From positions 7,620-71,619 of the IMG/VR virus record IMGVR_UViG_3300049321_000004: a stretch of DNA of 64,000 nucleotides; one strand, 5' to 3'. Of this stretch, positions 4 through 53,038 are shown one piece after another. Each line of letters starts with the position of its first letter. Within the stretch, counting starts at the first letter, position 1. The notes below the pieces were generated by a model, which did no database searches, was not told where the DNA came from, and saw only the letters and a program-made list of their open reading frames with translations. Made by a program: the position numbers and the translations under genes. The DNA comes from a virus (Duplodnaviria > Caudoviricetes).

Positions 4-1251
4 GTGCCCACGCTGGAGATGAAGGATGCTCCTGAAGTGTCTCTGGCAGCAGAGCACATGAAGGATGTGTCTGATGATGTGAAGATTGTCCCGCTGAAGT
101 TCACTCCTGAAGGAGGCTGGCCCAAGGCTTGCAACCAGCACTTCAACGCCACTGTTCACATTGGTTCATCTACGGGATGCAACTGGTACTTCTGCGAACT
201 TGATACCACCCCCATGGTGGCAGATTGGCTGAACATCCTTGAGACGGATCTCAACATGTCAGGCAAGAACTACATGGGCTCTGTGGTTCCCACGAGGTTC
301 GAAGAAGGCATCAAGGGGGATCACATGGTGGGAAGTGCCATCTATGCCCACAACATGGGACAGACTGCTTCTCTCTGGAAGTTCTGTCACGCCCAGAGCA
401 AGACCCCGTTTGACATCTACCACCGTGATGAACTGCGCCCACGCTGGCATGCTTCCAAGTTCATGCAGCACATGTGGTCCACGGTGAACTACCGTGAGGT
501 GGACGGTAGGACCATTTGCGATCCCCATCCCGACAATCCCAAGGGCTCAGACCATTCTGGAGAAGTTCGTGATAACGCCGTAGTCGTTCATGGCTGCAAG
601 GACGGTTCACTGGCCCAACTTATCCTCTCCAAGCCACCCCGTGTTCTGGAAGGCGCGGCATCAGGTATCAAACCAGTTCAGAAGGTATTTTTCAGTGGAA
701 ATCCTGAAGTGTGGCGACTGGAGAAGCCAAAGGCAGAAGGACAGGACGAAACAGTAGTGACTCAAACTCCTGCTCCCGTGGCTTTTCAAGAGGAAGTGAC
801 GCCGGAAAAGCACTTCGAACGGCTTTGCGAAGCCCTTGGATTGTTCCACGAGGAACACTTGGACATCTACCAGTCCCTTCTCGACCGAATCAAGGCTCCC
901 ACAGAGGATTTGGCTGAGGAACCTGTGTCAGAGGTGGTAGAAGAGGTGAAAACCGCTCCAGAGGCCCCAGAATCGCAGGAAACGCCCGTTGAGATACCTG
1001 CTCCCATCGTGACTCCTCCTCCCGTGGTCCTTGAGGCCCCTGTTGAGGTAGCTTTCCCAACACTGGAAGACATCCTTGCTTCCAAGGGGAATGGATCCCT
1101 TCGCTTCTCCTTGGTGATGGCTCAATTTCAGATCCCGCCAGCGCAATCGGTGAAGTTCAAAGGTCACCTCAATGACCTTGGGTTCATCATCAACAAACTG
1201 GGCTGGATGACAGAGCCTGTTTCTGGGCAAGCGTCTTTTGCTACCGCTTGA
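4..1251 (+). CDS. Hypothetical protein, N-terminal glycosyltransferase-like domain plus Pro/Glu-rich linker (may be 5'-truncated)
   Basis: 415-aa ORF directly upstream of portal; WYFCELD resembles a GT-A acidic motif; low-complexity P/E/V C-terminal half. Confidence 0.45.
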   Translation: MPTLEMKDAPEVSLAAEHMKDVSDDVKIVPLKFTPEGGWPKACNQHFNATVHIGSSTGCNWYFCELDTTPMVADWLNILETDLNMSGKNYMGSVVPTRFEEGIKGDHMVGSAIYAHNMGQTASLWKFCHAQSKTPFDIYHRDELRPRWHASKFMQHMWSTVNYREVDGRTICDPHPDNPKGSDHSGEVRDNAVVVHGCKDGSLAQLILSKPPRVLEGAASGIKPVQKVFFSGNPEVWRLEKPKAEGQDETVVTQTPAPVAFQEEVTPEKHFERLCEALGLFHEEHLDIYQSLLDRIKAPTEDLAEEPVSEVVEEVKTAPEAPESQETPVEIPAPIVTPPPVVLEAPVEVAFPTLEDILASKGNGSLRFSLVMAQFQIPPAQSVKFKGHLNDLGFIINKLGWMTEPVSGQASFATA

Positions 1252-1276
1252 TTGACGGTCAGGTTATTATCCTGCC

Positions 1277-3598
1277 ATGGCCATTACTCCTCCCAACACT
1301 GTTACCACAGAAAACACCTCAGCGATCCCCGGTGTGTCGGAGGATGGCAAGACCATCACCAAGCAGGGGAGGATCAAGGATCCCCAGTCGGCCATCAATG
1401 TGTGTGAGACCATGCGGAGGGATGATCAACTTGCTGCCTTCAACCGCACCAAGGTTCAGGCCATGTTTGACGGCCTTCCCCCACGGTCTCAGGCTGAGAT
1501 GCAGCGACTTGGGCAGGGGAACTGCGCCAACGCCAACTGGGGTCAAGGGATTGAACTCTTGGAAGAAGCCAAAGCCCCCTATCCCGGCCTCATCCAGAAC
1601 ACGGAGATCCTATGCTCTCTCCCGTTGAAGAACGATTTCGGGGACGAGAACCTGCGAACCGACTGGCAGCCCATCATTGAGGAGGAGTTTACCGTCATGC
1701 TCAGGAAGTGGAGCGGGTTCTACCCCAACTTCCTCCAACTGGTGCATCAGGTGAAGGCTCACGGGGTGGGGGTCATGTATTGGGAAGACGCTCTGGATTG
1801 GCGATTCTCCGTGGATGGGCTTCAGCGCTTCAAGTTCCCCCGTAACGTCAAACCGGACGCGGACTTCATCGAGATGTGTGGCTGTGAGGTCTCCATGCTG
1901 CCGCACCAGCTCTATGCCCGTATCCGCAACCCGGAGATTGCAGAGAAACTGGGATGGAATGTTGAAGCCTGCCGCAAAGCACTGGTAGACGCTCAACCGA
2001 ATCTACCCCAATACACCGACTGGGAATGGTGGGAACAGCAGTTCAAGAACAACGACTACCTCATGTCCTTCAACGGACAAGGAGAGCAGCCCACAGTGAA
2101 CGGGTGGTACCTCTGGGCCAAGGAGGCTGATGGTACGGTCTCTCACTATTTTGTGAACCGGGACAATCCGGGACAGGACTTCCTCTTCAAGAAAGAGGGC
2201 AGGTTCTCCAGCATGGGAAGCCAGATGGTGCTCTTTACCGATGACGTGGGTTCCAATGGGACGCTCCATTCCATCCGTGGACTGGGGCAGGTCATCTTCT
2301 CCAAGGTCTTGGCTGACAATCAGATCTACAACCGCATGGTGGATCTGGCGGTCTTTACCTCCACGCCCATCTTTGAGCAGGCCGATGAGGATAGCCTGAT
2401 GACAGACGCCTTGATCCCCGTGGGGGCTTTCAATGTCCTTGGAAGTGGATGGAAGTTCCCTGATCGTCAGATGCCAGACTACAGCCGGTCCCTGATGCCC
2501 ATGATTGAGACCTTGCGGGATCGCATGCTCTCCGCCTCCTCACGCTACACCCAGACGGCCCCCACCCTCCAAGGACGCCAGCCTTCCACCAAGTACGGGG
2601 AACAGGTGCGCCAAAACAGCCTTGCCGCCCTGTCTGATGCGCAGATCAACCTCTTCATGGCCCCATGGGAACGTGGTATGAAGAACATCGTGCGTCGTGT
2701 CACCCGCAAGAACTACATGAATATGGAGCCGGGAGGACATGAGGTGGCGGAGTTCAAGCGCCGTTGCCTCATCCGGGGCGTTCCCACCGAGGCCATTGAA
2801 CACATTGATGTGGATTCAGTGCGCGTAGTCATCCCCCTTGGAGCAGGCTCACCAGCAGCCCGCACGATGATTCTGGAACAGTTGCTGCCCATCATGCCAT
2901 CCTACGACCAGACGGGTCAGGCGTACTTCCGCCGTGACTACACGGTGGCTGTGGCTGGGGTACAGGCAGCCAACCGCTACGCCCCTGCCAGTGGTATCAT
3001 GCGGACTCCCATGGATGTTCCTCTGGCCACCCTCCAGAACTCCAGCCTGCGTGAAGGATTCCCCCAGCCGGTGTACGACACGGACAACAACCTTGTCCAT
3101 GCCCAGACCCACCTTTCCGGGGAGAACGGCATCCAGAGCATTGTCATGCAGATGCAGCCGGAAGGACAGATGCCCATCACGGAGTCCATCCCCCAGCTTG
3201 AACCGCTCTATACGCACGGCATGGAGCACCTCCAACTGGCAGATCCCAACAATCCGCTCACCCGAGAACTCACCCAAGAGTACCAGCGGGTCAGTGGCAT
3301 CCTTCACAACGGGGCCTTGCAGCTTCAGAAGCTCGAAGAACAGGCTGCTCGTGACGCAGAAGGTGGCCTAGGATCGCAGAACGGCCAGATGACGGGCGAA
3401 GGTGGACCAGAGCAAGGAAAGGGCATGAAAATCATCCAGAGCGTGCTGGAGAGCCAAGCAAAGCTCAAGATCATCCGCGAGAAGGCTGAGTTGGAGAACC
3501 AGATCAAGCGGGAGAGAGCAAATCAGGATATGGCCATTCGTGATGCCCAAGCCGCCTATGACCTGAGGCGCAAGGCACTGATGGAGACAGCCGCATAA
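1277..3598 (+). CDS. Portal (head-tail connector) protein
   Basis: 773 aa, position between terminase end and scaffold/capsid, Q-rich helical C-terminus typical of podoviral portals. Confidence 0.75.
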   Translation: MAITPPNTVTTENTSAIPGVSEDGKTITKQGRIKDPQSAINVCETMRRDDQLAAFNRTKVQAMFDGLPPRSQAEMQRLGQGNCANANWGQGIELLEEAKAPYPGLIQNTEILCSLPLKNDFGDENLRTDWQPIIEEEFTVMLRKWSGFYPNFLQLVHQVKAHGVGVMYWEDALDWRFSVDGLQRFKFPRNVKPDADFIEMCGCEVSMLPHQLYARIRNPEIAEKLGWNVEACRKALVDAQPNLPQYTDWEWWEQQFKNNDYLMSFNGQGEQPTVNGWYLWAKEADGTVSHYFVNRDNPGQDFLFKKEGRFSSMGSQMVLFTDDVGSNGTLHSIRGLGQVIFSKVLADNQIYNRMVDLAVFTSTPIFEQADEDSLMTDALIPVGAFNVLGSGWKFPDRQMPDYSRSLMPMIETLRDRMLSASSRYTQTAPTLQGRQPSTKYGEQVRQNSLAALSDAQINLFMAPWERGMKNIVRRVTRKNYMNMEPGGHEVAEFKRRCLIRGVPTEAIEHIDVDSVRVVIPLGAGSPAARTMILEQLLPIMPSYDQTGQAYFRRDYTVAVAGVQAANRYAPASGIMRTPMDVPLATLQNSSLREGFPQPVYDTDNNLVHAQTHLSGENGIQSIVMQMQPEGQMPITESIPQLEPLYTHGMEHLQLADPNNPLTRELTQEYQRVSGILHNGALQLQKLEEQAARDAEGGLGSQNGQMTGEGGPEQGKGMKIIQSVLESQAKLKIIREKAELENQIKRERANQDMAIRDAQAAYDLRRKALMETAA

Positions 3599-3934: not shown

Positions 3935-5320
3935 ATGCCTGACGCACCCGCTGCTGCTCCCATGGTTCCCAATGGACCCCCTCCCAATGCCGTGGACCCA
4001 CGGTCATCCCAACGTCCTGCATGGGCTGACAAGCAGGCCAATGATGTGGCTGCCGCCAAGGAACGCCTTGGACTAAGTGGTAACAGCAGCTTCCTGGATC
4101 GCGTGATGGCCAAGACCAGTCCTGATGCTGAACCGAAGAAGGATGCGCCACTGGACACCCGTGGCACCAAGGTTCTTGGGAAGGATCAGGTCAACCAGCC
4201 TGCCAAAAAGGTGGAAATCAAGGAGAACGCCCCTCCTGAGAAAGCCTCGTCTGCTGAAGCCATTGAAAGCCTGCTCAATGGGGAGATTGAAGCGGCTGAT
4301 CTGGCCAAGGAAAAGGGCAAGGAAGAGTTGAAGTCCAAGGATGAACCCAAGGACGATGAACTGGAGCCCAAGGCCAAGGATCCCGCCCAGCAGGACAAGG
4401 GTGAGGAGCGCAAGGCCTACAAGTGGGGCGAGCTGAAGAAAGCTGCCAATGAAAGAGACGAGCTTATTCCTCAAGTTGCTCAGTTGAAGGCCGAGAATGA
4501 GGAGTTGAAGAAAGTATCCAAACTCAAGGAATACGAAGAACTCTCTAAAAAATACGAGGAGACCAGCAGCAAGCTGGCCGCATTCGACGTGAAGGAGTCC
4601 CCGGAGTTTCGTGAGCATGTGATGCAGCCCATTGATGAACGCTACGGGCTGCTTGAAGGGCTGGCCAAGGAGTACAAGCTGGACATGGAAGCCATCGAGA
4701 AGGCTCTTGCGCTGCCTGAGAAGGTGGCAAGGAACCGTGCCATAGCCAAGATCCTTGCCGAGAGTGAGGATCCTATTGATTCGGTGTCACAGGCAGATGC
4801 CGCCCGTGCCGCCAGTGAGATCTTTGAACTCCGCCAGTACGGTACGGAACTCCAGAAGAACGCTAAGGCAGCGCTGGAGGCCATGAAGCTGGAGCGGGAG
4901 AAGAGTGATGGAGAGAAGACTGCCAAGCAGCAGAAGGAGTTTGCTGACACCGCAAAGATTACGTGGGATCGCCTCACCAAGGCTGTTCCCTACCTCAAGG
5001 AAAACCCTGCTGAAGCCAAGGCCATCTTTGAAGCACTCAAGCCCGAGGAGATGGGGAAGGCCCCTCCTGCCATCCAAGCCTACAATGCCTACGCCGGTCA
5101 GATCCTCACCCGACTGCTGCCCCAGCACAAGCAGGCCATTGCCGCCAAGGATGGTCGTATTGCAGAGTTGGAGAGTCGGATCTCAGAACTGACCAATGGT
5201 GGACCCTCCATCAACGGTGATCAGCCAAGAAGTGAGCAGAATGGTCACCAGAACCCGCTGATGAGGCCACAGGGTGTCTCCATGGCTGACTGGATTCTGG
5301 CGAAGAGTAACGGCAGGTAA
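3935..5320 (+). CDS. Capsid scaffolding protein (putative)
   Basis: K/E/A-rich coiled-coil protein upstream of the capsid gene with a short C-terminal helix (SMADWILAK). Confidence 0.65.
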   Translation: MPDAPAAAPMVPNGPPPNAVDPRSSQRPAWADKQANDVAAAKERLGLSGNSSFLDRVMAKTSPDAEPKKDAPLDTRGTKVLGKDQVNQPAKKVEIKENAPPEKASSAEAIESLLNGEIEAADLAKEKGKEELKSKDEPKDDELEPKAKDPAQQDKGEERKAYKWGELKKAANERDELIPQVAQLKAENEELKKVSKLKEYEELSKKYEETSSKLAAFDVKESPEFREHVMQPIDERYGLLEGLAKEYKLDMEAIEKALALPEKVARNRAIAKILAESEDPIDSVSQADAARAASEIFELRQYGTELQKNAKAALEAMKLEREKSDGEKTAKQQKEFADTAKITWDRLTKAVPYLKENPAEAKAIFEALKPEEMGKAPPAIQAYNAYAGQILTRLLPQHKQAIAAKDGRIAELESRISELTNGGPSINGDQPRSEQNGHQNPLMRPQGVSMADWILAKSNGR

Positions 5321-5329
5321 GTTACCAAC

Positions 5330-6064
5330 AGTTACCAGTATCTGAAGACTGCTTCTTTACTGGTGAACTTTGAGAACACGGCACAGTTCTCCCATTGCTG
5401 GGAGAGACCATGTAACTGAAAACGCTTCCCCACCGGAGCCACCCTGAGTTTCCGTCACACAAGGATTCAAGATCCTTGTCCGGGAGAGCGCCACGGTGCA
5501 GATGCATGCTAACGACGCTTGTGATTCTCCCGGCATGTTCCCCCTCAGTTTCCTGAGGCATCGCTTTTACCCAGCCTGCTTGTCTCAAATCCGGCTGGAA
5601 CCGTTACTGTGTAAATCCAGAGTCCAACGGGCAGGGCTTGATACCTGCTTGGCCAATTTTCTCCCGAACAGCGATCAACCTGTCCTTGTCAGGCTACCGG
5701 CTGGCACACGACCGCGACCGGCATGCTTCTGGGATTGGACTGTACTCTCGTGGCATTCCGCTTGGCTCGGAGCCTTGTCTCCGCGTGTCCTTCCACGCCG
5801 CCGCTGGACTCTGGATTTACTGAGAAGGCTGAAGTGGAGCGCCGCCGACTCGAACGGCAGTGGCTAGACCGTCACTCGCCCCATTTCAACCTTCTCTACA
5901 CCCTCTCCGGCCCGAGTTGCCCACGCAGGGACTCTACCAGAATGTCGCAGAGGGATTCTGCCAAACAAAAGAGCCGAGCAGGGGTGGAGTCCTAGCTCGG
6001 CTCAGTTGAGGGTTGCTCAAGTGGTCGAATCGCTTCGACTCCACCGAAGCAACCCTTTTGGTCT
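5330..6064 (-). ncRNA. Candidate large structured non-coding RNA, antisense to the virion operon
   Basis: No credible ORF; 20-bp helix 5611-5630/5801-5820; >10 hairpins; GNRA loops (GCGA, GAAA, GCAA) and G-U pairs favour the minus strand; upstream promoter. Confidence 0.65.
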
Positions 6065-6070
6065 GACAGA

Positions 6071-6099
6071 AGAATGGGGTAATCCGCCAATACCCGCAA
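6071..6099 (-). promoter_or_regulatory. Sigma70-like promoter for the antisense RNA
   Basis: Minus strand TTGCGG-17 nt-CATTCT. Confidence 0.5.
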
Positions 6100-6107
6100 C
6101 TATTTTC

Positions 6108-6136
6108 TGGACTTTTTACACACCTCCATTAATCAT
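6108..6136 (+). promoter_or_regulatory. Possible sigma70-like promoter for capsid transcript (divergent from the antisense promoter)
   Basis: TGGACT-16/17 nt-TAATCA(T) in an AT-rich island. Confidence 0.35.
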
Positions 6137-6142
6137 GTGTTC

Positions 6143-6372
6143 AGCGCGAGGTAATTAACCTCGAAAACCTCTCGGACTTAGCGCAGTTTGGGAACCCTAG
6201 AGCTTAAAGCACACGACGGCCTAGCTCGGCTTGTCACCCTGTTCTCCCTCGTTCGGCAGGCCCCATGATGGGCTCCGACTGCAACAGCAGTGCTTTGTCT
6301 CCTACCGGAGGCCCTTGTCCAGCGCGGGAATCACTCAACCGTTCCCAACCGATCCGCTGGATCATCCCCAAA
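6143..6372 (+). promoter_or_regulatory. Long structured 5' leader of the major capsid gene
   Basis: Hairpins CGAGGT/ACCTCG (6147-6163), CCCA-TGA-TGGG, and CCAGCG..GGGAA/TTCCC..CGCTGG ending 12 nt before ATG 6373. Confidence 0.45.
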
Positions 6373-7542
6373 ATGGCTAATCAAGACGACTTGTTCGCAA
6401 CAGAGGCACTCCGTATGGAGGGCGAAATCGCAGAAGTGGGACGCTATGTGTCCCCCTTCTCCACCGTGCTGGAAAAGGGAGTGGCTCCCGATGGCATGGG
6501 ATTTAACTTCCAATCCGTGGTGAATGAACGGTCCATCCCGACCTCCACCTACGACTGGCAGGAACTACAGGCCAACGACGGAACAGGCAACACCTGTGCC
6601 CCGAACGCCGACATCATCCGCCCCGCCCGCTCCATCAAGGACTGGGCACTGGAACAGCTTGCCTTCAACAGCAACCAGATCTGCGTGGAAGACATTCGCC
6701 GCAGCTACAACCGCGCCCAGCAGGCACAGGCAGACCGCGACAACTTCCGTGACAACATCATCGACACATGGGAGATCAAGGACCGCCGCGAATACACCAA
6801 GTGGGCACGCTGGAAGTACGTGGCGGCAGAAGGCATGCCCTACACGGATCAGAGCATCGAGTTCCCCCTTGTACCGGCCACCAGCCCGCTCACCGCAGGC
6901 ACCCTCCGCACAATCCGCAGCCGCATGATCCGAGACGGTGCAGGCCGTCGTGGCAGCTACGCCAAGTCCGATGGAGCACCGGTCTTCATCGTCTTCATGA
7001 GTTCCGAACAACAGGAAGGAATCCTGCTCCGGGACAACGAAGTGCGGCAGGACTACCGCTGGGCCGAACCCAAGGAGCTGCTGAAGCCCTTCGGCATGGA
7101 CCGCACCTATCAGGGCTGGTACCACACCATTGACGACAAGCTGCCCCGCTACGACTTCGAAGGCGGAGCATGGGTAGAACGCCCCTTCTATGTGAACACC
7201 CCGACCACCATCGGGGAGAGCGCCGAATTGAACCCAGCCTACGAGACGGCAGGGTACGAGGATGTCATCGTGTTCCACCCAGATGTGGTGACGAGGATGG
7301 TGCCTTCCAGCTTCACGAGTGGTGGAGGCGGGACCCAGTTCGACCCGATCAACTATGGGGGCGAGGTGCGCTGGGTGAATTTCCCATCGTACACCAGTGA
7401 GTACTACAACATCGACGGGAACACCGGGTTCTTCCGGGCGAGGTTGACTGCTGGGTATAGACCGCAAACTACCAGATACGGATATGTGTTGAGGGTCAAG
7501 CGGTGTGTCAACCAGACCTGGTCGCTAGTTGGCTGTTCCTGA
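6373..7542 (+). CDS. Major capsid protein
   Basis: 389 aa from ATG 6373 (MANQDDLF), follows scaffold, strongly biased codon use, followed by a terminator. Confidence 0.75.
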   Translation: MANQDDLFATEALRMEGEIAEVGRYVSPFSTVLEKGVAPDGMGFNFQSVVNERSIPTSTYDWQELQANDGTGNTCAPNADIIRPARSIKDWALEQLAFNSNQICVEDIRRSYNRAQQAQADRDNFRDNIIDTWEIKDRREYTKWARWKYVAAEGMPYTDQSIEFPLVPATSPLTAGTLRTIRSRMIRDGAGRRGSYAKSDGAPVFIVFMSSEQQEGILLRDNEVRQDYRWAEPKELLKPFGMDRTYQGWYHTIDDKLPRYDFEGGAWVERPFYVNTPTTIGESAELNPAYETAGYEDVIVFHPDVVTRMVPSSFTSGGGGTQFDPINYGGEVRWVNFPSYTSEYYNIDGNTGFFRARLTAGYRPQTTRYGYVLRVKRCVNQTWSLVGCS

Positions 7543-7559
7543 ACGAGTTATGAACCTTT

Positions 7560-7598
7560 TACTGCCCTACAGAACGTTCTGTAGGGCAGTATTTGTTT
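7560..7598 (+). terminator. Rho-independent terminator (perfect 32-bp palindrome plus T tract)
   Basis: TACTGCCCTACAGAAC/GTTCTGTAGGGCAGTA at 7560-7591 followed by TTTGTTT. Confidence 0.75.
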
Positions 7599-7699
7599 AC
7601 AGAATGTTCTTGCATCTTATAACCTTTTGCGCCATCATGGGCGCACCCCCAGCCGATGACAGTCGGAATGGAGGTGCTAACTCAACCCATGATCTTACC

Positions 7700-8341
7700 A
7701 TGAGCCAAGATGTAGATATTAACGTCGAAGAAACCGTTTCGTTCAACTTGTCCGAAAAAGACATTGAGAGGTTTCACTCAAAATATTCCAAACATGCTGC
7801 GCAGAACTGCTGGAACTGGAAGGCTGGCTGTTTCAGCACGGGCTATCCAGCATTCAAGGTTAACGGAAAGACTGTTCACGGAAATCGTGTGGCCTATTTT
7901 TTAGGAAATGGTCCCCTTGAAAAGGGAAAGGTTGTGCGTCATTCGTGCGACAACCCAAAGTGCGTGAATCCATTCCACCTCTTAATTGGATCGCATCAGG
8001 ATAATATGCGAGACATGGTTGAAAGAGGAAGGTCTGCGAAAGGAAATAAAAACGGAACTCGTCTCTACCCCGAGAGACTGAAGAGAGGTGAGGATCACCC
8101 CGGATTCAATAATCCCGGCATGTATCATCGCGGGGATGAGCATTGGACTCACAAGAAGCCCGAGCTACTTAAGCGCGGCTCAGACCATGGTTCCGCCAAA
8201 CTGAACGAGGAAAAGGTTCTTGCGATTCGTGCAAAATTCGCTGCTGGGGGAGTATCAAAAGCTGCCCTCGGAAGAGAATATGGTGTAAACGAGTGCATGA
8301 TCGGATTTATCATTCGCCGAGAAAAGTGGACCCACATCTAA
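7700..8341 (+). CDS. HNH homing endonuclease with C-terminal DNA-binding repeats/HTH
   Basis: CWNW..VRHSCDNPKCVNPFHL.IGSHQDN motif; G-x-x-H repeats then AKLNE; more AT-rich than its neighbours. Confidence 0.9.
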   Translation: MSQDVDINVEETVSFNLSEKDIERFHSKYSKHAAQNCWNWKAGCFSTGYPAFKVNGKTVHGNRVAYFLGNGPLEKGKVVRHSCDNPKCVNPFHLLIGSHQDNMRDMVERGRSAKGNKNGTRLYPERLKRGEDHPGFNNPGMYHRGDEHWTHKKPELLKRGSDHGSAKLNEEKVLAIRAKFAAGGVSKAALGREYGVNECMIGFIIRREKWTHI

Positions 8342-8353
8342 CTATCCCCTCCC

Positions 8354-8611
8354 ATGCCTGAAATGCCCGAAATCGATCTGCCGGACGGATTTGGTCCCCC
8401 ACAAGGGACTGAGCCCGGACAAGACTATGAAGCTGTGGTCGTTCTCAGGGAGAAGCCCAATGGCAAAACCTGCGTCGTGTCCTTGGATGGAAGCCGGTAC
8501 CAATCCGAGGATGACGACTACGACGAAGAGGAAGAAGTAGAAACCACCGAAGAAGTTGTGGAACAACCTGCTGGCCCTGATCTGGGGTTTGCCAACCGGC
8601 TCATGCAATGA
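8354..8611 (+). CDS. Small acidic hypothetical virion-region protein
   Basis: 85-aa ORF overlapping the next start (ATGA). Confidence 0.65.
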   Translation: MPEMPEIDLPDGFGPPQGTEPGQDYEAVVVLREKPNGKTCVVSLDGSRYQSEDDDYDEEEEVETTEEVVEQPAGPDLGFANRLMQ

Positions 8612-24800: not shown

Positions 24801-27800
24801 AGGTGTTGGATAGCCTGTGGAGACCATTCTATGCAACATGGGAGGCTAATCGTACCGAGAACGGTCTTCCGCTGGATCAAGCCCAGCTTGCTGCGGACTG
24901 GCAGGATCACATCTCCGATTCAGACTACTTGTTCAACAAGGATCTGGAACTGATGATGGAGAAGAGGAATCGGGGGCGTGAGCCGGGATTGTACAGCCCT
25001 GAACCCACTCAAACACCATCCGAACTTTCTACAGCACCCTCTGGCACAGATCGACTTCAAGAGATTGCTGACCGATTCTCCTACGAACCCTCCACCACCC
25101 AACAGGAAGGTCAGACTCCTGCACAGGCTACCAAGGATCAGCGCACCTACTCTGATGGTACCCCCGTAGAGATGTACCGTGAAGGTGGGATCTCTGGACC
25201 CCTTGGCGAGAAATGGGCTGGAGAAGCCATCGACCTCCTCATCAACCAATCCCCCGATGGTCCTTCCATGGATTTCGGCAGGGAGTTAATGGGGTATATA
25301 CGGGGTACTTCCGATGAGTGGAATGGGCTCCGGGAGAGCAATACGGCCCTGAGGATGAACATGGCCCGTAGTCTGGTGAACGATGTTCAACAGCGTAATG
25401 TGTTAGGCATCCAGATTGGAGACCTGCGACTGGCCATGCAGAAGATGCTCACCACCTCAGGAAAGGTGCTGCAATCTGCCGCCAACTTCATCTACCAGCC
25501 GCTTCAAAAGATGGCGGAGAAAGCCAAGGAACTGGCTACCACCAAGGCTGACCAAGAACTTGGATCCTCGGACTTTGTGGGAATGGCCAAGGAAGCCAAT
25601 GAATCCTTCGTCAAGGACACCAAGGACAACTTCACAGAGAACCTGACAGACTCCGATGTGAAGGAAATGGTCATGGAAGAAGCCCAGAATGAGGTGGACG
25701 CCATGGACTACAGCTTTGCCTTGGAGGAACTGGGTCCAGAGAAAGCCCAAGCCTTCCAAGACCTCATTGCTGAGATCGCCTCCCTTGACGAGGAACTGCG
25801 TCAACTGGCTGAACTGGAATCCCTTTCCACTCCTCCCAGCACAGCAGCATCTGCCCGTGAACAGGTTCGCAGCAAGAAGCTGACGGTTGAGGAACTGCGC
25901 AAGAGCATTGAGGCCCGCAAGAAGACCATTGGAGACCTGATGGAGAAGATCCAAGGGGTCAAGACCACCGGTGATGTGGTGGAACAGGCCAGAACCAAGG
26001 TCCGTGCCGCCAAAAAGAAGAAGCAGGCGAAAGTCACCAACAACGCCTCCTTCCGTGATTGGGTGGGAGGTGCTGAGACAGCGGATTTGGCCAAGTTCAA
26101 TGACTTGATGAAGAAGTACATCCAAGCCTCTGGATTCAACCGTGAGGCGTTTACCACTCTTCTGACTAACAAGTTTCCCGAGGCAGATCCGGACTTTATC
26201 AACAAGGTTGTGTATGGGTTTGCCTCCGTTCTAGATGGAGCTGCCACGGAAGAGGGAGTGACAGAATCTGCTCCCGTGAACTACGACGCACGGGCCAAGC
26301 GTATTGTGGCCAAGTCTCTTTCCGAAGGCTCTACAGCTCCCAAGGTAGAACAAGTAGACCCGTTGAACGAACTCACCGGCAAGCGTCTCAAGGGAGAAAT
26401 CTCTGTAAAGCAATTTCAGGAGGAAGCCAAGAAGCTGGGAATTGGTGAAGATACTGTCTTCGCCCTACTCCAGAAGGTGGACTTGGATCGTGCCCGAATT
26501 GGGGACACCGCCGCCCAACGCCAGATGAATGCTGAGGCCAAGAAGGGTATGAAGCAGGCTCGCGAAGCTGCCGAGAGAGAGGCTCAGAAGTTTGAGAAGG
26601 AAGCGCTGCGTGAAATCCAGTCGGCGTCTGCTCAGTTTGTCGAAAACTCCCCCCAAAAGAAGCCTGCGGCCTCCGACCTGAAGCTGCTCAAGGACTCGTT
26701 CCTTGGGAAGAATGGACCTCCCATCCCTGAGTCGGAATTCCTCTCCAAAGCAGCCGAACTGAACATCAAGCCAGAAACGGCCCAGAAACTCGCTCAGTGG
26801 CTTTCCGCCTCTCGCAGGGCTGATGCCATGGAAAAGCTGCAAAAAGCTCTCCAGAGGGCCGCAAAAGCCAAACAGAAGGCCGTGGAGTCCATGGTGAAGA
26901 AGCTGAGCAAGGTCAAATCCCCCGATCCTCGTAAAGCACGCCAGCGTTCCCAGTTCGTCTCAGCCATCCTAGGAGCCATGGAGACCGGCATCCTTGAGGA
27001 GGATGCGGTTCGGGACAGCTTTGCCCATGCCTATGACCTCCATGGCCTGACCAACGAGCGCCTGAAAGAACTGGGGCAGATGCTTCAGGACATTGAGAAA
27101 CTCCCCGAGGGAATGGTCAAGGAGACGCTCTACAACGAGTTCTCCGTCCTTCTTAACGATCTGGCTCCCAGCGCCCAGTACAGCAAGTTCGCCCACGAAG
27201 CCCTCATGGGATACGTCCTTGGAGGTATCAACACCATGGTCATGCAGGTATCGGGCATCAACCGCTACCTCAACCCTCTGTCTGGAACGCTGAATGTCCT
27301 GTGGCGTCCTGAGGGCACCATTGGCCAGAAGATCGGAAGAACCCTTGGAGGCAAGTATGTCCCTATGGGGAACTTCTTCCGGGTCTACTTCCAAGGCATC
27401 AACCAGTTGATCCAGAGCCTTCCCCAGATTGCCAATGGCATTACTGGCATCATAGACTCCAAGCCAACAGGAATTGGAGCCATGCCAACTGGATTACAGA
27501 ACATCCGGGTCCATGACACCAGCATGTCCTACACCCCAGTGGGTCAAATCAGTAAGTTCCGGTTCGAGGCTCCAAAACTCTTTGAGAAGATGGGTCTATC
27601 AGGACTCGTCAACCTCACCAAATACCCAGCATGGATGGCCAGCCGATCCTTCCAAGTGATTCGGGCTGCGGAAGGTCTTGTGGGATCTGCCGACCGGAAC
27701 ATGCAGTGGAGGTCGCAGATGACCGAAGCCCTGATGAAGGGGGACAACCTTTCGTGGGCAGAGGCCTACAGTCGCGTTTCTGATGCCTTAGGGGACAAGA

Positions 27801-32392: not shown

Positions 32393-32401
32393 ATCTGGAA
32401 A

Positions 32402-32474
32402 TCCTCCCGGTCAGCATCGAACTGACACTGTGCAGCGTTTAAGGCTGGGCCTCTGCCAATTGGGCTACGGGAGG
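32402..32474 (-). tRNA. Atypical tRNA with UAA (Leu) anticodon and short variable loop
   Basis: CCTCCCG/CGGGAGG acceptor, GCC..GGC D arm, CAGC-CTTAAAC-GCTG, GTCAG-TTCGATG-CTGAC T arm, A73, no adjacent encoded CCA. Confidence 0.7.
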
Positions 32475-32477
32475 AAA

Positions 32478-32552
32478 TGGTGTCCCCAGACTGATTCGAA
32501 CAGGCGACCATCGGCTTAGAATGCCGCTGCTCTTCCACTGAGCTATGGGGAC
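32478..32552 (-). tRNA. tRNA-Arg(UCU)
   Basis: GTCCCCA/TGGGGAC acceptor, GCTC/GAGC D stem, loop ATTCTAA, TTCGAAT T loop, encoded CCA. Confidence 0.9.
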
Positions 32553-52887: not shown

Positions 52888-52938
52888 AAATGAGAATGGT
52901 TAGAGATTCGTTTCTAGCAGTCGGTCAGCATCCCCGCT

Positions 52939-53038
52939 CCCCTGACCCTCCTAGAGCTAGAAAGCCTCTAGGAAGGGCCAGGATTGAGCAGCAGAGGGGA
53001 GCCAACCAGAGGTGACTGGCTCCCAGCGTGGTCAGGGG
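52939..53038 (-). promoter_or_regulatory. Intergenic three-way-junction structure
   Basis: Perfect stems 52939-52947/53030-53038, 52949-52956/52966-52973, 52997-53004/53017-53024. Confidence 0.5.

Follow-up and report, generated by a model that had tools for sequence, protein, structure and literature searches.

What does a phage carry in a long stretch between two structural genes when that stretch encodes no credible protein, and on which strand is it to be read? The locus considered here lies between the scaffold-like and capsid-like genes of an uncultured soil phage, in a stretch of 64,000 nucleotides that we refer to as the window (bases 7620-71619 of a 71.6-kb IMG/VR virus record). A preliminary description of this sequence had proposed that the locus holds one ornate RNA of ~740 nt on the minus strand, similar in size and phage context to the GOLLD and ROOL classes but assigned to neither. 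In this study, we have compared the locus with its counterparts in related phages, and its parts with RNAs found elsewhere, to answer both questions.

An optional antisense slot between the scaffold-like and capsid-like genes

The locus is laid out as follows (window coordinates):

Stop at 5320: scaffold-like gene, 461 aa
5326..6096, minus strand: the whole cargo cassette, between the scaffold-like stop (5320) and the conserved region upstream of the capsid gene
Start at 6373 (true start, ATG): capsid-like gene, whose homologues are of 389 aa

Both flanking genes have many metagenomic homologues, and neither protein contains a Pfam family. The 1052 nt between them (5321-6372) hold only short ORFs, none of them a credible gene and none with a Pfam match, so that the ORF-poor gap noted in the preliminary description is real. 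Searches of viral contigs with single proteins found no related loci, a metagenome scan returned capsid relatives at 35-41% identity only, all of them without cargo of the window type, and blastn of window 4000-8500 against cultured phages gave nothing meaningful. Our comparison set consists of contigs defined by their capsid proteins, which are 76-98% identical to that of the window.

In this set, the surroundings of the cassette are stable and its content is not. The flanks are 92-97% identical to those of L002, L010 and L011, and the flanks of L002, L010, L011, L012 and L013 align to the window at 70-97%; the interior of the gap is unrelated to that of the window in L002, L011, L012 and L013, L010 being the exception. 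For the cargo of L002, no similarity to that of the window was detected by tblastn, tblastx or short blastn. In L003 and L004-L009, the gap measures just 241-250 nt and has no insert. Sisters with a 94-98% identical capsid protein thus carry unrelated cargo at the same slot, and in more distant relatives the slot is empty. Its right boundary is sharp and follows immediately on a shared AAGTCCAGAAAATAGTTG (window 6097-6114, minus strand), and its left boundary lies a few bases past the scaffold stop codon. The cargo of the relatives is as follows:

L002, minus strand: a 182-aa ORF
L011, minus strand: a 441-aa Ro60/TROVE+vWA protein (TROVE E 2e-22, phrog_850 E 8e-55), with a tRNA-Pro before the gene
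L012, minus strand: a 234-aa HTH-like protein and a 91-aa protein
L013, minus strand: a Clp_N protein

The cargo is thus swapped among relatives, and their cargo genes all share the minus-strand orientation, which makes 5326-6096 an accessory slot that is both optional and antisense; in this phage, its cargo comes without a gene.

The cargo of L011 (661-2725, same slot) deserves a description of its own. The Ro60/TROVE+vWA gene lies at 811-2136 (minus strand) and is preceded by a tRNA-Pro(tgg) at 2455-2531. By eye, we also recognise a YrlA-like RNA, with a GCCGAAAG motif in a long stem and hairpins CUGGG-UGCAAAU-CCCAG (T-like) and CCGG-GAAA-CCGG. Taken together, these parts resemble a complete unit of Ro60 and Y RNA carried by a phage. 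A second variable position lies directly 3' of the capsid gene, where the window has an HNH endonuclease gene (7529-8341; HNH_3, E 1e-8); at the equivalent place, relatives have HNH genes of 184-270 aa. The gene of L010 there encodes 333 aa and matches DZR only faintly; that of L002 encodes 210 aa and lies on the minus strand.

Folding of the cassette and its division into modules

For the minus strand of 5321-6100, the folding energy is -345.8 kcal/mol (z -6.55), a value equalled by 0 of 20 shuffled sequences; for the plus strand, it is -302.4 kcal/mol (z -4.24). All structural elements listed in the preliminary description were recovered. The helix 5611-5630/5801-5820 is 20 nt long and 95% complementary, its single mismatch being a G-U pair on the minus strand, and the second helix (5822-5841/5877-5896, 20 nt) is 85% complementary. 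The GNRA loops GCGA (6030-6033), GAAA (5549-5552) and GCAA (5395-5398) are all present on the minus strand, and the shorter stems appear in minimum-energy folds. In the order of a minus-strand transcript, the predicted modules are:

5960..6064, minus strand: module A, leader of ~105 nt, hairpin 1 followed by a terminator-like hairpin
5897..5959, minus strand: module B, short linker, ~90% conserved with L010, one hairpin supported
5822..5896, minus strand: module C, stem-closed hairpin with a tRNA-elbow-like tip at 5835-5882
5611..5820, minus strand: module D, stem-closed RNA of 210 nt
5326..5610, minus strand: module E, multi-hairpin block of 285 nt with GAAA and GCAA tetraloops

The sole relative with cargo of this type is L010, a 4.9-kb groundwater contig. 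It keeps modules A, B and E and has exchanged the interiors of C and D, of which it nevertheless keeps the closing stems, with compensatory changes in that of D.

The leader and its candidate promoter

The elements of the leader, with the promoter claimed upstream of it, are:

6071..6099, minus strand: claimed promoter TTGCGG-17-CATTCT, weak, candidate only
6009-6056, minus strand: hairpin 1, with a GCGA-capped tip
5971-6003, minus strand: terminator-like hairpin, 9-bp GC-rich stem and 15-nt loop
5961-5970, minus strand: U-tract, UUUUGUUU after the terminator hairpin

The promoter sequence is present as claimed, but it agrees with the sigma-70 consensus TTGACA-17-TATAAT (which may not be the consensus of the host) at 3+3 of 12 positions, and a promoter scan reports none. 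Its TTG sits in the conserved flank and the remainder inside the swappable cassette; the same position reads TTGCGG-17-GATTAT in L002 and TTGTCA in L010.

The terminator fared better. The hairpin at 5971-6003 and the UUUUGUUU that follows it are both there, and L010 keeps them with compensatory changes and a U-rich tail. On the minus strand, this is the GC-rich hairpin plus U-tract of an intrinsic terminator, which a terminator scan misses because its loop exceeds 8 nt. Module A as a whole folds at -55 kcal/mol (z -7.5 against mononucleotide shuffles). The leader (6064-5960) is only ~65% identical to that of L010, its structure being kept by compensatory changes: the tip of hairpin 1 passes from GUCGA-AGCGAU-UCGAC to CUCAG-AGCGAU-CUGAG, and paired changes occur in the outer stem of hairpin 1 and in the terminator stem. 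Furthermore, the terminator loop (5983-5991) can pair with a segment of hairpin 1 (6037-6045), and the pair GGUGGAGUC (6045-6037) / loop GACUCCACC (5991-5983) becomes GGUGACUC/GAGUCACC in L010. A soil variant shows 5985T>C together with 6043A>G and 5989G>A together with 6039C>U, again compensatory for the loop-hairpin pairing, and in all, compensatory changes in the leader are seen in three variants. The inner part of hairpin 1 and this pairing compete, so that two conformations are possible. A leader that bears such a terminator, kept in L010, could give rise to short and read-through forms, as the preliminary description had suggested.

Leaders unrelated in sequence but of the same layout, a hairpin and then a terminator-like hairpin, are found in L002 (6351-6697) and in L012; there, the terminator loop or the 5' half is complementary to the upstream hairpin. 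The hairpin-then-terminator leader may be a shared regulatory design of the slot.

Modules B, C and E

The supported hairpin of module B changes from GCAGA/UCUGC to GCGGA/UCCGC in L010, and the fold of this module taken alone is not significant (z -1.9). Module C folds at -40 kcal/mol (z -4.9). The tip of its 12-bp stem combines an acceptor-like stem that includes a G-U pair, a D-like loop containing GG, and a T arm whose loop is the canonical T loop UUCGAGU (5854-5848); an anticodon arm is absent. In L010, module C keeps the outer stem and has a different interior of ~110 nt. Neither the tRNA model nor ARAGORN reports a match at module C; the tRNA likeness that we propose for it, and for module D, is suggested by the order of the helices and the loop motifs.

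Module E is very conserved among close relatives. It is 96% identical to L010 over a 302-nt match (5326-5626), and contigs from three soil runs carry it at 97.7-99.4% identity, with pieces of the flanking genes at 81-96%, which makes module E more conserved than those genes. Its predicted fold reaches -110.9 (z -4.2), and the hairpin CCUCAG-GAAA-CUGAGG shows one compensatory pair relative to L010. Outside this lineage, no homologue was detected by blastn against cultured phages or by two exact-pattern scans of viral contigs with the first hairpin of the module. Module E is lineage-specific, with near-identical relatives only, and because it has no divergent relatives and one L010 change breaks its predicted closing helix, we treat its fold as a prediction.

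Module D and a widespread RNA family

Module D is composed of the following parts:

5611-5630/5801-5820, minus strand: P1, followed by a CG spacer
5783-5798, minus strand: D-like hairpin GCGUG-GAAGGA-CACGC
5649-5782, minus strand: variable insert
5631-5648, minus strand: T-like hairpin GCAGG-UAUCAAGC-CCUGC

In contigs from soil runs, the arms of this module (~5611-5650 and 5783-5820) are commoner than the phage itself and flank other interiors. Exact copies of the 18-mer at 5631-5648 occur in at least 88 viral contigs and in 39 genome contigs of many phyla. The isolates among the latter belong to Xanthobacter, Ancylobacter, Labrys, Asticcacaulis, Alcaligenes, Comamonas, Sphingobacterium and Paludibaculum; the metagenome bins, which account for many of these contigs and may be mis-binned phage, are labelled Firmicutes, Actinobacteria, Planctomycetes, candidate phyla and Methanocorpusculum. 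The 19-mer at 5783-5801 is found in at least 119 viral contigs, mostly other than those of the 18-mer. An exact-pattern scan of viral contigs with the 5' flank of the closing stem (5601-5621) returned none.

A strict structural finder, which also picks up module D of the window, collected 145 distinct members (93-376 nt, including 10 flanking nt per side). Written as RNA, their layout is a closing helix, CG, a hairpin of the type GCGUG-GAAGGA-CACGC, an insert, A, a hairpin of the type GCAGG-UAUCAAGC-CCUGC, and the return strand. The two core hairpins hardly vary in sequence, the CG spacer is found in 136/145 members and the A before the T-like hairpin in 144/145. The insert varies from 36 to 320 nt, and the closing helix measures 6-27 bp (median 11) with a sequence that varies between contigs. 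This layout was already present in 72 of the 89 first-probe loci, and it, or a matching upstream arm, in 143 of the 153 second-probe places. Over 50 members, 94.4% of cells are paired, as compared to 69.7% after shuffling and 30-43% with slid partners; changes on both sides occur in 238 cells vs 66, and in 17 of the 20 pairs. As the finder itself demanded pairing, what these statistics show for the hairpins and the inner stem follows in part from the selection, and is to that extent inflated. A covariance model (R1) built on 50 other members, with the window excluded, matches the minus strand at 5810-5621 over its full length (60.5 bits, E 4e-12), and has no other match in the window or its relatives.

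Several observations bear on orientation and context. Where tRNA or tmRNA genes lie within 1 kb of a member, 32 of 33 are co-oriented with the minus-strand reading of the window, and members are found within or next to tRNA arrays, in the orientation of the array, the distance to a tRNA being 1-14 nt in some cases. The counts of G-U vs A-C pairs favour one strand (52 vs 34). Pfam searches of 122 flanking ORFs revealed no recurrent partner, no reverse transcriptase, no TROVE and no consistent integrase or recombinase. Neither an enrichment of CCA or another motif next to the closing stem nor a clear co-variation between D-loop and T-loop variants was seen. Rfam, the tRNA model and ARAGORN give no match at module D, and a compact member is likewise unrecognised. 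The genome contigs with members are labelled Proteobacteria, Bacteroidota, Acidobacteria, Firmicutes, Actinobacteria, candidate phyla and a methanogen. Full-length members also lie in unannotated gaps of two cultured phages, Caulobacter phage DMCA (PQ480021, at about 25551-25689; 65 bits; host Caulobacter vibrioides CB15) and Alcaligenes phage vB_Af_QDWS595 (OK149171, near 52890-53013; 62 bits; host Alcaligenes faecalis). Based on these results, module D belongs to a widespread, unnamed RNA family that is absent from Rfam. A 2023 survey of IMG/VR (PMC10690425) listed 8,495 candidate structured RNAs, some of them tRNA-like, and may contain this family.

In individual members, the neighbourhood or the insert shows further features. 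In L100 (6548-7557), a member shares a phage RNA array with a permuted tmRNA (RF04321, 82.9 bits) and four tRNAs, and every element of this array has the same orientation. In L085 (905-941) and L119 (2631-2668), abiF motifs (RF03085, 43-47 bits) are located 50-850 nt from members. The inserts of L136 and L121 contain a GGGUGCAAGUCCC hairpin that resembles the T-like hairpin of the putative Y RNA of L011.

The comparisons presented so far establish that the stretch is a cassette, that its modules are exchanged, that its strand is the minus strand and that module D is a member of a family with covariation. They also allow two alternative readings to be weighed. In the first, the long stems would be recombination handles or hairpin sites acting at the DNA level in cassette exchange, and RNA structure would be secondary. 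The exchange between the window and L010 does fall exactly inside the conserved closing stems CCAGAGUCCAG/CUGGACUCUGG and GAGAAGG.../...CCUUCUC, and the boundaries of the slot are sharp. However, the closing stems of the module D family differ nearly everywhere yet stay complementary, with all pair types, no integrase or recombinase is consistently nearby, the G-U vs A-C counts favour one strand, and members are co-oriented with tRNAs. We give this reading an outside chance.

In the second, the whole ~740 nt would fold globally as one large ornate RNA and form a new class comparable to GOLLD or ROOL. The great stability of the global fold, the several GNRA loops, the joint presence of A, B and E in both the window and L010, and the occurrence of GOLLD and ROOL in phages near tRNAs (PMC5737381, PMC12286853) would all suit it. 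Against it, no match to GOLLD, ROOL, OLE or raiA appears even at E 10, the interiors of C and D were exchanged while their neighbours stayed, each module closes on itself in the predicted fold, and D occurs alone, as units of ~80-360 nt, in hundreds of unrelated contigs. Moreover, the region is dispensable, being absent or replaced in sister phages. The single RNA of the preliminary description is therefore not upheld, and we hold such a reading to be unlikely: as there are several separately folding RNAs, one of them in a widespread family, the stretch is not one giant ornate RNA.

Strand and coding potential

The description of the stretch as structured, non-coding and read from the minus strand agrees with the U-tract of the terminator, with the G-U pair in the closing stem of module D, with the lower folding energy of this strand and with the lack of Pfam matches. 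In the predicted closing helix of module E, two G-U pairs on the minus strand would likewise be A-C mismatches on the plus strand. The U-tract, the G-U pairs and the orientation of the module D family argue against a structured plus-strand 5' UTR that would control capsid expression within the late transcript. The late operon must indeed be transcribed through the stretch, and the plus strand also folds well (z -4.24), but sisters with 94-98% identical capsids lack the stretch or have other cargo, and we find this reading very unlikely.

Module E contains an 88-aa minus-strand ORF with a TTG start that is retained in L010, where 4 of 6 substitutions are non-synonymous; no word-sharing homologue was found for it among 5.8 billion protein clusters. 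That the stretch is the decayed remnant of a protein-coding cargo gene, as the protein genes at this slot in other phages and the retention of this ORF might suggest, is scarcely credible in view of the lack of a protein-level homologue, the strong structure with compensatory changes, the covariance-model match and the conservation of module E above that of the neighbouring genes. Direct repeats of the ToxI type were not found in the stretch, and no minus-strand terminator was seen after module E.

Relation to known RNAs

Rfam searches over the window, its relatives and the family members (gathering score, and E<=10) returned only tRNAs, a permuted tmRNA and abiF, all elsewhere; in the window itself, tRNA and tmRNA detection (Rfam, ARAGORN) found only two tRNAs, at 32401-32552. 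That the locus matches no Rfam family is thus borne out at gathering score over the window and at E<=10 over 5200-6500. Membership in GOLLD, ROOL, OLE, raiA or HEARO was rejected, with no covariance-model match even at E 10 over 5200-6500. GOLLD and ROOL are large, GNRA-rich RNAs of unknown function, found in phages and often near tRNAs (PMC5737381, PMC12286853). The stretch resembles them in being phage-borne, large and GNRA-rich, but they have one conserved architecture, whereas it is a chain of exchangeable modules.

With tRNA, module D shares the order of the helices, the 2-nt spacer, a GG-bearing D-like loop and a T-like loop of the form U-N-U-C-R-A-R-Y. Unlike the 7-bp stem of tRNA, the closing stem of its family ranges from 6 to 27 bp; an insert of 36-320 nt replaces the anticodon arm, and there is no CCA and no anticodon. 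Module C can be compared to the tRNA-like domain of tmRNA, in which an acceptor-like stem with a G-U pair is likewise combined with a T arm and a D-like loop and the anticodon arm is lacking; in module C, however, the ends are not free but enclosed in a 12-bp extension, and a tag reading frame is absent. Neither ARAGORN nor Rfam finds a tmRNA there, and we rejected this identity.

YrlA is a stem-closed RNA with a tRNA-mimicking domain (PMC4201824), as in the modules of the window. Its order is permuted (stem, V, T, AS, D), while module D has the normal tRNA order and D precedes T in both C and D. YrlA has Ro60 (TROVE) within ~4 kb on the same strand; no TROVE gene was found in the 71.6-kb genome of the window phage, and Ro60 occurs only in the sister L011. 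The YrlA motif GNCGAAN0-1G, which in YrlA stands in the 5' strand of the long stem, occurs here once, in the leader, as GUCGAAG at the tip of hairpin 1, and becomes CUCAGAG in L010. With no TROVE gene, a motif lost in L010 and a different module order, membership in YrlA or Y RNAs was rejected. Nevertheless, in terms of function the Y RNAs come closest as a theme, since Ro60 occupies this slot in L011.

Two comparisons with well-known phage elements are also useful. Like phage morons, the cassette is a self-contained optional unit between essential genes, with the difference that morons carry protein and the cargo here is RNA. The oop RNA of lambda and the lambda 6S RNA from pR' are short terminated leader RNAs. 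In a comparable manner, the promoter-proximal terminator of the window would give an RNA of ~100 nt antisense to the main operon, or else a read-through form; here, the terminator loop pairs with the leader hairpin, which is supported by covariation.

A proposed role for the cassette

We think it probable, on balance, that 5326-6096 is a moron-like optional slot directed against the late operon and filled with a row of independently folding minus-strand RNAs that would be processed and act in trans. Leader A, through its terminator and the pairing of the terminator loop with the upstream hairpin, probably yields a short RNA, and read-through would yield a long form, along which the predicted modules follow one another as the leader A, the linker B, the tRNA-elbow module C, the tRNA-shaped module D and the multi-hairpin block E. 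Host tRNA-processing enzymes or RNase III would then cleave the read-through transcript at its tRNA-like and long-stem modules, and the cuts would release stable small RNAs acting in trans on the RNA machinery of the host. These might serve, for example, as decoys or scaffolds against tRNA-directed or RNA-quality-control factors.

More tentatively, and with considerable doubt, it is possible that the family of module D is a natural "tRNA scaffold": a tRNA-shaped frame, with two hairpins forming the elbow, that displays fast-changing inserts to a universal host partner, mimics like module C being traded as well. The strict conservation of the hairpins, the free insert and the lack of a linked protein gene together point to such a universal partner, which could be found among tRNA-processing enzymes or tRNA-targeting defence enzymes. 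Module E could then be a further lineage-specific large RNA from the same cassette.

Accessory slots in phages are known to hold protein genes with which the host is manipulated; here, such a slot carries cargo of RNA biology, on the antisense strand. At this one position, near-twin phages have either Ro60 with a tRNA and a likely Y RNA or a purely non-coding RNA array. The family of module D is a good candidate for an undescribed RNA function, and its presence in cultured Caulobacter and Alcaligenes phages makes it directly testable. If the scaffold reading is true, phages of many bacterial phyla would trade tRNA-shaped units as accessory genes at the level of RNA.
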